From positions 1 to 22,248 of the IMG/VR virus record IMGVR_UViG_2778261418_000019: a DNA stretch of 22,248 nucleotides; one strand, written 5' to 3'. Both the position numbers and the translations under genes were made by a program. Each line of letters opens with the position of its first letter. Within the stretch, counting starts at the first letter, position 1. Under the pieces are notes generated by a model. It saw nothing but the letters and a program-made list of their open reading frames with translations, ran no database searches and was not told the origin of the DNA. This DNA comes from a virus. Taxonomy: Duplodnaviria > Heunggongvirae > Uroviricota > Caudoviricetes. Below, one piece after another: positions 11,600 to 14,500 of the stretch.

Positions 11600-14500
11600 A
11601 TGGCAAACCAGATTATTACGGGCGGTGGATTTAAACTATATTTTAATAACGACACCGCAAACCGTATCCCCGATAACGCAGGAAATGAACAAGTAAACGA
11701 ATTGGCAGCAATGCCTACATTTGGTGTAGATAGTCAAGTACAAACTATTGAAGTATATGACAGTGGATTTTCCGAAAAACTATTATCCGAAAAAACGGCG
11801 TCGAATATTCCAATTACCGTAAACTATGTAGCAGATTGTACGGCCCATAAATTTTTGGATGAAATGACAGAATCACAAGAAGAATTCCAACTTACTCTAC
11901 AGTACGATGTAACTGATGGTCTAATTTCTTATAGTATGGTTAATGGTGCTATATCTTCTTATTCTCTAAATGGTGATAAAGATTCGGTAGTTACCAAAAC
12001 ATATAACTTTGTGCCTACCGAAGTAATTGCAACTAACGCAATTGCCCCACTAAGCGAAAACTTAGTAGTAGGATCTTATGGTGTTGGTGCTAATGGTAAT
12101 GATGTGCCTCAGTACGAACCACTTACCCCCGAAGGTAATAGCTTTATTAAAGTACCTGCATCACAGCTAGGAAACCCAGCCAGTGCGGATATGATGGGTG
12201 TAGGTCTTATTGATGGTAATTCGTTTAGTTCCATTGCAATGACTAAATCCGGTACATTGGCAATCTATGCAAAGAACCAGAATACAGCATGGACGCGTAT
12301 ACTTACTGCAACCCAGATTAGTGATCAGTATGTACCACTTACCCGTACTATTAACGGTAGAGCACTAAGTACAAATATCTCAATTACTAAAGGTGATGTA
12401 GGACTAAGTAATGTAACCAATGATGCACAATTGAAAATTGCAAGTAACCTTAGTGATCTAGCAGATAACTCAATTGCCCGTACTAACTTAGGTTTAAGCC
12501 GTTTCCAACAATACGCTAACCCCGTTGGCGAAACTCGCGTAGTATCCGGCGATGGTAATATGCGTTTATTTGTTAAGAATGATGGCACCTGGGGGGTGTG
12601 GAACGGCACAGCCAACGCATCACAACCCCTACCAATTCTACAGGGTGGAACAGGGGCAAGTACAGCAGAACAGGCGAGAACAAACTTAGGTATTCTTTCT
12701 TCTTCCGAAGTTAGTAACCTATATGTACCAAAAACTACTACTATTAATGGTAAAGCACTTACAGGTAATATATCAATTACTAAAGGTGATGTAGGACTAA
12801 GTAATGTAACCAATGATGCACAATTGAAAATTGCAAGTAATCTAAGTGATGTTGCAGACGTTACTACTTCTAGAAATAATATTAAAGCACCTACGGTTGG
12901 CGGTGGTCAAATAATTGCAGTTCCAGCACCTCCGGGAGTGGAAGCAGACAAATACTATCCAGTAATTATCGATCTATCCTATGATAATATTTCTTCTACT
13001 GGTGCACATATCGATCTATATACTAAATCGTCTTCTGGTGGTGATCCGATGAACTCCGCACAGTTTAACGGTTTTGTTCGTGCTGGTGGATGGACAGATC
13101 GCGGTGATGCTGGATATGGTTACTATAACTGCTATGCACCAAGTGAAAAAGCACTTAACTGTATTCTTGTTAGTGCGAAGGTTGCAGAAGATAAGATGGC
13201 AGTATACGTAGAAGGCCGAGCGTTTCCAGTACGTATGAGGATTCCAGCATTCTGTACTGCATTTGCACCAACGGCAACATATACCGCAGGATCTGATGTA
13301 GTTTACCCGTGGGGCGTAGCTGATCCAATGAGTACCGCAGTTGCAAACGGAACGCGTGCATTATTCGATTTTAGACAAGCACGTCCTGGCTTTTATATGT
13401 CCAATAGTTCTACTACTACACCTAACTATTATATCGGTGGTGGTGGTCGTGCTGTACTATCAAATGGTATGAATATCGGAGAAAACCTAACAATTACGGC
13501 TCCTAAATTAACATTTAGTGGTAATATTGAAGCGGGTAATGGTTTTATTGCTTCCGGTACTGGTGTAAATGATTTTACCTTTGTATCAAAACAATTAAAT
13601 GCAGATTTATCTACTAAATCACAATCAGAATTTAGAACGAGCGACGGGGCAATTCAATTAGTATGGCGTGGCGTTACTTCAAGTGATACTACTCAATTCT
13701 TTAACTTTAATAGTGATGGTACATTTAGCTCACCAAATGGATTTTTATCTTCAACTGGTCAGGACTGGAACGGTCAAACATCCATTGTTAACCGTAGTAG
13801 ATTTTTAGCTGGTAGTGTAAACGGTCCAGACGGTACTAATGTCTATGGCGGTACTCATACTGGCTTTAGTGGTAATTATGGTTTTCAGATTGTAGGAAGA
13901 CAGAATAAAGCATTCTTCCGTACTATCGAAGCTGGTACTAATGGAACATGGAATCAGATACCAACTCTGAATCTAGCTAATACATGGGCCGGTACTCAAT
14001 CATTTACTGGTAATCTATCAATCACTGGTAAAGTAACATCACCAATTACAATTGAAGGTGGATCACCTGCATTTATTCTCAATCAAACGGGAACTGGTGC
14101 TACAAAATATTCACTAATTGGAACGGATGGAAATATTACCTTATCTAAAAATGATACATTTGATGTAATTAAATATACATCTAGTACCGATACACTTAGT
14201 ACAGCAGCAGCAAATACTACATTAAAAAATCTATCTGTTACGGGTAATCTATCCAGTACGGGTACATTAACAACTACGGGTAGTTTGAACGCCCAATCAT
14301 TGACTACAACAGGTATTGTAAATGCTGGATCAGTAACTACTACTGGTAGTGTAAATGCTGATACTATTGTAGCAACAGGAAGTATTGATTCTTCTTCATT
14401 GACTACAACTGGTAGTGTAACTTCTGGATCATTATCTACCGGTACTGTTACGGCAAGTGGTGATATTATTTCTTCTAGTAAGATTGTTACACAGGCTAAC

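Follow-up and report, generated by a model that had tools for sequence, protein, structure and literature searches.

The locus considered here raises the question of why a long tail fibre should begin with what looks like a copy of a tail tube protein. It lies in a 22,248-nucleotide (nt) stretch of a virus of the Caudoviricetes (IMG/VR record IMGVR_UViG_2778261418_000019, positions 1 to 22,248), here called the window, whose + strand bears a siphovirus morphogenesis operon. Two genes are central: a long-fibre open reading frame (ORF) of 1244 amino acids (aa), F, and a plain tail tube protein of 152 aa, T, whose starts are separated by 3795 nt. We consider it moderately probable that F is a lateral fibre whose first ~148 residues derive from an ancient duplication of T, remain tube-competent, and form a ring of the DNA conduit.

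The initial annotation claimed that the fibre N-terminus aligns with the small protein encoded 3.8 kb downstream, and pairwise alignment of the two bears this out. In BLASTP, F aa 1-137 align with T aa 1-139 (32% identity, 52% positives, E=2e-18), interrupted by a single 2-residue gap. The Smith-Waterman local score is 186, compared with 31.9 ± 5.7 (maximum 74) for 2000 shuffles of T (z=27). All five motif blocks that had been described as shared are present in the BLASTP alignment, as the F/T pairs ELAA/EVAA, GVDSQV/GFESTV, YDSGFSEKLL/YNSAYNRKLL, TVNYVADCTAH/TVNYLADNAVH, and KDSVVTK/KDEVVTK. Both proteins match positions 12-156 of PHROG 158 'major tail protein' (F, E=1.2e-18; T, E=3.7e-21). 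T also passes the cut-off of Phage_tail_3, the Pfam tail tube family (28.1 bits vs 24.2), and in both E. coli relatives its annotation reads 'phage tail tube protein'. On sequence grounds, T is a genuine tail tube protein.

Structure prediction of the F N-terminus likewise returned a tube fold. A single-sequence AlphaFold2 (AF2) model of F aa 1-300 was unusable, with a predicted local distance difference test (pLDDT) score of 30, and was replaced by an alignment-based model. In this chimeric model, F(1-245) was joined by a Gly/Ser linker to the 130-aa protein encoded directly upstream; of the 61 alignment rows used, one was misplaced, which was judged harmless. In the model the tube domain reaches a pLDDT of ~95, with strands at residues 12-16, 43-51, 58-67, and 70-75, a helix at 81-92, and further strands at 96-105, 108-124, and 132-150. 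The modelled domain has the tube-fold layout of a β-sandwich with one flanking helix and a long β2-β3 loop, and occurs once in the chain (~148 aa). Structurally it is matched best by ring-forming tube proteins rather than by collar domains. The alignment, PHROG 158, and the modelled fold together support the earlier reading that the fibre carries a tube-fold domain as its putative anchor. The estimate of a tube-like stretch of ~145 aa needs a small correction: the domain ends at ~aa 148-150 and is followed by a linker and a second, all-β domain.

Family consensus sequences of F and T share the blocks MA.DIF.G, Y.S.Y..KL.G.K, VNY.PD..H, NG..SS, and G.KD.VV.K, and both domains are acidic (mean net charge of -11.6 for F and -7.4 for T). 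In known tubes the N-arm and the β2-β3 loop make the ring-to-ring contacts (PMC8718954). The MA.DIF.G N-arm and the Y.S.Y..KL.G.K β2-β3 loop are common to F and T, which together with the shared acidity fits in-line stacking of F with T rather than peripheral binding.

The remainder of F has the makings of a lateral fibre. The linker comes out as disordered in the model, where the pLDDT runs at 65, 49, and 63 over aa 150-180, falling below 50 at aa 164-169. The second domain is the best-conserved stretch over 104 family members, carries the motif G-[DS]-[YF]-G-[VI]-G ... NP ... W-[TS]-R-I-[YL]-T, and is modelled by AF2 with strands within aa 181-234 at a pLDDT of ~90. It (aa 158-240) has no match in Pfam at E<=1 and none in NCBIfam, and a 'pyocin knob-like' identity is unsupported for F. 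The three PHROGs matched by the shaft (6578, 5481, and 1980) are all tail fibre families. By tblastn, aa 147-1243 show 37-51% identity to proteins in 718 phage records, annotated as lateral or long tail fibres, from T5-like phages, Queuovirinae, and other E. coli and Salmonella siphophages. These alignments never begin before query residue 147. The C-terminus matches Pfam PF13884 over aa 1131-1185 (27.4 bits vs a cut-off of 22). By these matches F is a long lateral tail fibre with a C-terminal S74 chaperone. The shaft also contains a near-exact direct repeat of ~54 aa in translation, encoded at 12329-12490 and 12722-12883 (aa ~244-297 and 375-428), with the sequence YVP.T.TINGRAL..NISITKGDVGLSNVTNDAQLKIASNLSD.AD.

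The architecture is widespread in prophages. Searching 1.84 billion representative proteins with a profile built from five F N-domains gave 153 matching proteins at E<=1e-3. About 105 of these are 500-1563 aa long with the domain always at residues 1-~150, and plain tube proteins (~150 aa) enter the matches only from E ~1e-17 downward. The family comprises more than 100 clusters (50% identity) in Enterobacterales prophages, with E. coli, Citrobacter, Pantoea, Leclercia, Kluyvera, and Serratia as hosts. A word-indexed protein search with the same domain gave just two relatives, and it was the exhaustive profile search that recovered the family. Its members carry public labels such as 'tail fiber domain-containing protein', 'hypothetical protein', and 'pyocin knob ... 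S74 peptidase'; the tube domain is not named in any of the database annotations found. A 6180-aa protein (P0095) with 19 short profile matches was set aside as an Asp/Thr/Tyr-rich surface repeat protein whose match is compositional, not homologous.

Phage genomes, by comparison, hold little of the family. Among 50,697 GenBank phage records, megablast of the region and tblastn of the F N-domain gave nothing, no fibre aligns with F aa 1-146, and the F architecture occurs only in Escherichia phage DCP80. The DCP80 record (PQ671644.1; 141 kb; Straboviridae/Gaprivervirus) holds a lambda-like siphovirus head-tail module at 1-24363 that is syntenic with the window and in which almost every gene is labelled hypothetical. 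The record could be a chimera or wrongly classified, and no relevant paper on DCP80 was found. The window prophage itself is rare, adjoining yegD/alkA in two of the 5426 complete E. coli genomes. This rarity, together with a frameshift in the tape measure gene of the window copy, could be taken to mean that the F architecture is an artefact, arising from misassembly, from a fusion of genes at this locus, or from prophage decay that left a functionless gene. Such an origin is extremely improbable, being effectively refuted by family-wide conservation: the architecture is intact in more than 100 clusters and six genera, from E. coli to Serratia, synteny is kept, and the reading frames are long and uninterrupted. 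A frameshift or read-through product of T, on the model of SPP1, was also rejected, as F and T are separate genes with F upstream of T.

Synteny extends to distant subfamilies. All 11 inspected loci have the order 130-aa protein, F, T, and a plain T is always present. The overall order is stopper, ~130-aa protein, F, sometimes extra distal fibre genes, T, chaperones, tape measure, and distal tail protein (Dit). DCP80 (L001) and the loci L013, L014, and L015 have at least one extra distal fibre gene between F and T, which may be S74-type, T4 gp36/gp37-like, or unannotated. In this distant, split-fibre subfamily F is shorter (533-1209 aa), and some members have a weak T4 gp36-like match. The extra distal genes suggest that F there is the proximal segment of a multi-part fibre, which implies that the fibres are jointed or branched.

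In a neighbour-joining tree of eight F/T pairs, all F domains lie apart from all T proteins. The distinct clades point to a single duplication that came before the lineage diversified and left two copies, both of which have been kept; this retention argues for non-redundant roles of F and T. The same result bears on whether F and T instead co-assemble, with F subunits or trimers scattered along the tube and fibres at many levels. F keeps both stacking elements of T and is collinear with it over the whole domain, nothing in its sequence limits it to one level, and the two ribosome-binding sites look alike (AAGGA ~10 nt 5' of each start). The SPP1 tail, with gp17.1 and gp17.1* at ~3:1 and an FN3 domain in place of a fibre, would be a precedent, and the gp17.1* tube structure is among the structural matches. 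Two tube species in one SPP1 tail are also described in PMC8718954. Nevertheless, co-assembly is unlikely. The separation of the clades before the lineage diversified and the 20-32% identity between F and T within a genome are more typical of proteins with distinct positions, as for T5 p140, and many 1000-aa trimeric fibres on a flexible tail would carry a steric and energetic cost.

The conduit ring that we favour would be assembled from fibre trimers. Fibres with an S74 chaperone fold as trimers, and the S74 chaperone would likewise drive trimerisation of F. Each F trimer would then present three tube domains on flexible linkers of ~10-30 residues, and the three domains of one pre-formed trimer would dock at three adjacent positions of a hexameric ring. 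Two F trimers would make one complete ring with two long fibres covalently borne. Two fibres per ring are predicted because the domain-to-fibre logic of Ur-lambda is applied to F trimers; in Ur-lambda, ~10-residue linkers join each trimeric fibre to three N-terminal ring domains, so that 12 domains give four fibres (PMC12617516). The F ring would stack in the tube by the same N-arm and β2-β3 loop contacts as T, as a dedicated ring within the DNA conduit without a collar or adaptor protein, and all remaining tube rings would be built from T. It would probably occupy one defined level. The chances are evenly balanced that such a ring, made of two F trimers at one fixed level of the tube, is a third mode of side-fibre attachment besides collars and Dit adaptors.

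Several points weigh against this proposal. F matches no Pfam tube family at E<=0.01, Peptidase_S74 being its only match. No direct precedent was found for a hexameric ring with two trimeric fibres (C2), and the case for incorporation of F into the tube is drawn from fold and conservation. The tape measure is frameshifted in the window prophage, so the window copy may not make tails. Further, the tube domain is the least conserved part of the virion module between close relatives: window positions 11600-12043 are 72% identical to L005:14799-15242, whereas identity is 91% for T and 94-99% for the portal, capsid, terminator, Dit, and hub. This is mildly awkward for a subunit between two conserved interfaces, though the divergence probably stems from exchange of fibre genes by recombination, perhaps with T included.

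Fast divergence of the domain would suit a tube-like domain that lies outside the conduit, as an adaptor on the tube exterior, the Dit, or the hub, or as a module used only in assembly. The known side-fibre anchors are also all peripheral, namely the lambda Stf collar, T5 p132/LtfC, and the Dit adaptors of Sf11 and monocin. We regard this as improbable, somewhat more so than co-assembly, since a peripheral adaptor has no need of the full tube fold, N-arm, β2-β3 loop, and acidity that F has kept, and since its nearest structural matches are with ring formers and not collar domains.

The level at which an F ring would sit can be argued in two directions. Gene order has been found to agree empirically with position in the tail (PMC11784142), and the order terminator, F, T suggests a proximal ring under the terminator. 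Conversely, likeness to T5/DT57C and lambda suggests a distal ring on the Dit. In T5/DT57C the p140 ring, the collar, and LtfA are at the distal end (PMC10713586). Co-divergence of F with the terminator or the Dit over six loci does not discriminate between the two positions, with all correlations at 0.82-0.96.

T5 p140 resembles F in having a tube fold without being the major tube protein. However, T5/DT57C uses three separate proteins (the p140 TTMP ring, the p132/LtfC collar, and the pb1/LtfA fibre) where F is a single chain. p140 has a duplicated tube domain and forms a trimeric ring, in contrast to the one ~148-aa domain of F, and its gene follows the tube gene whereas F precedes T in all 11 loci. 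The 12-mer T5 collar holds the N-termini of three fibres non-covalently, compared with the two fibres per ring predicted for F. F does not have the type of N-terminus by which pb1/LtfA inserts into the p132/LtfC collar, its N-terminus having a tube fold instead, and no collar-type gene was recognised among the window tail genes scanned with Pfam and PHROG. Ur-lambda gpStf is like the predicted F ring in using the N-domain of the fibre itself as an anchoring ring, with short flexible linkers (PMC12617516). The Stf collar domain, however, is a six-stranded sheet plus helix of ~94 aa that forms a 12-mer outside the gpV/gpM junction and bears four fibres. The F domain is a tube fold itself, predicted to lie in line with the tube.

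Tube domains with an outward C-terminal extension are known from lambda gpV (an Ig-like C-domain), T5 pb6, YSD1_22, and SPP1 gp17.1* (PMC8718954). In these decorated tubes the extension is a small single domain on the major tube protein or its frameshift product, present on all or many rings. F differs in being a separate paralogous gene, 32% identical to T, with an extension of ~1100 aa that forms a trimeric fibre of the receptor-binding type. The earlier statement that F goes beyond the Ig domains of lambda gpV and the SPP1 tube variant is supported. Tube-fold modules at the conduit end also continue into fibres or hold them in Tal/hub proteins (lambda gpJ, monocin FtbL, T5 pb3-pb4) and Dit adaptors (Sf11 gp17, monocin FtbK) (PMC11830787, PMC12724387). 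Tal has two tube-fold subdomains per chain and forms a trimer that closes the tube with a single central fibre, while Dit holds side fibres non-covalently. The window encodes its own separate Dit and J-like genes besides F.

Table 1. Positions of F, its domains, and the neighbouring tail genes in the window, with the split-fibre regions of other loci.
Feature	Position	Strand	Support or remark
Head-tail stopper, lambda gpFII-like, 106 aa	10870..11190	+	Phage_attach 30.4 bits vs 26; PHROG 82 head closure
130-aa protein directly 5' of F, probable tail terminator	11192..11584	+	
F ORF, 1244 aa	11600-15334	+	
Tube-like N-terminal domain of F, aa 1-148	11600..12043	+	
Start of flexible linker of F, aa 149-157	12044..12070	+	Low model confidence until ~aa 180
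Second family-conserved all-β domain of F, aa ~158-240	12071..12319	+	Family not assigned
Shaft and distal part of F, aa 241-1130	12320..14989	+	PHROG 6578, 5481, 1980
Peptidase_S74 intramolecular chaperone and coiled-coil tail of F, aa 1131-1244	14990..15334	+	
T, plain tail tube protein, 152 aa, paralog of F N-domain	15395..15853	+	Pfam, PHROG
Two tail assembly chaperone genes, 100 and 104 aa	15916..16598	+	PHROG 344 for first; position kept in all loci
Tape measure gene, frameshifted by 1 nt near 16985-16992	16600..18808	+	PHROG 13674
Distal tail protein Dit, 184 aa, candidate neighbour of F ring	18876..19430	+	PHROG 1302, E=4.7e-16
Split-fibre region, DCP80	L001:7466-11839		
Split-fibre region	L013:9001-14156		
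Split-fibre region	L014:9001-12307		
Split-fibre region	L015:9001-13935		

The window operon (Table 1) begins with the small terminase, a GpA-type large terminase, a 173-aa head-tail joining protein, a lambda-type portal, and a protease-capsid fusion. It continues with the gpFII-like stopper, the 130-aa protein, F, T, two chaperones, and the tape measure, and ends with Dit, a hub-like protein, DUF6950, and a J-like tip protein. The capsid gene (8959-10857) encodes a 632-aa protease-capsid fusion and shares ~90 nt with the 3' end of the portal gene. Its relatives combine Peptidase_S78 and Phage_capsid, and the fusion is kept throughout the lineage. The 60-nt gap between F and T contains a 10-bp stem-loop at 15342-15364 (GTAGGGAAA/TTTCCCTAC), which is terminator-like on the minus strand only and might affect the relative expression of the two genes.

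For the 130-aa protein, a mechanical ORF call at 11135-11584 (149 aa, from a GTG at 11135) runs into the stopper gene and is probably too long, the relatives being annotated at 130-131 aa, which matches the ATG at 11192. Pfam, PHROGs, NCBIfam, a PDB profile search, and a homologue search were all uninformative on its function. In the AF2 chimera its secondary structure runs helix-helix-strand-strand-helix-strand-strand (pLDDT ~85), and the terminator-fold matches were assigned to this part of the chimera by inference. Tail terminators have a four-strand sheet plus two helices and no outer sheet (PMC11784142; PMC11830787). The modelled layout matches this description, giving the 130-aa protein a terminator-like fold, and it is probably the tail terminator. 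F itself could be imagined as the terminator or cap, bearing neck fibres in place of a gpU-type protein, as it occupies the slot directly 5' of the tube gene where the terminator usually lies and is preceded by three small connector genes. This is highly improbable; with a terminator candidate and an own Dit both present as separate genes, F would be an extra tube-fold component that replaces neither. The Dit homologue in L013 has a Pfam DTP-pb9_B-dom match on record.

The tape measure of the window is split over two ORFs of 130 aa and 589 aa, which match PHROG 13674 at positions 1-137 and 156-756, respectively. The indel reads ATGCGGTGA in the window vs ATGGGTGAA in the intact 732-aa homologue of L005 (E. 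coli WGI31CT, NZ_CM135810), with continuation in the +1 frame. NZ_CM151386 (L006) carries this frameshift as well. Either it marks a +1 recoding site, or the prophage is defective and the mutation inactivating.

Much of what surrounds F is known already: tube-fold rings other than the major tube (T5 p140, Dit N-domains, the Tal hub), tubes decorated with Ig or FN3 domains, ring-forming Stf N-domains, and central fibres from Tal. No published description was found in which a long lateral fibre is fused to a dedicated tube paralog of a single domain, though subscription journals were thinly covered and an earlier description is possible. For annotation, the finding means that a tube domain has gone unrecognised in more than 100 protein clusters of Enterobacterales prophages. 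The ~150-aa tube domain with its linker is also a compact, portable module that could be used to graft fibres or cargo onto tails and tailocins.

In lambda, T5/DT57C, Sf11, and monocin, a collar or Dit extension outside the conduit provides non-covalent attachment for the side fibre. Were the fibre a tube subunit itself, the mismatch between sixfold rings and threefold fibres would be solved in a new way. If gene order is a guide, the F ring would lie directly under the terminator, with long fibres extending from the neck and wired into the tube wall. The route by which the trigger signal for DNA ejection travels in siphophage tails is still debated. If F is a conduit ring, receptor-binding fibres would be physically coupled to the tube, and receptor binding by the fibres could pass straight into the tube lattice.

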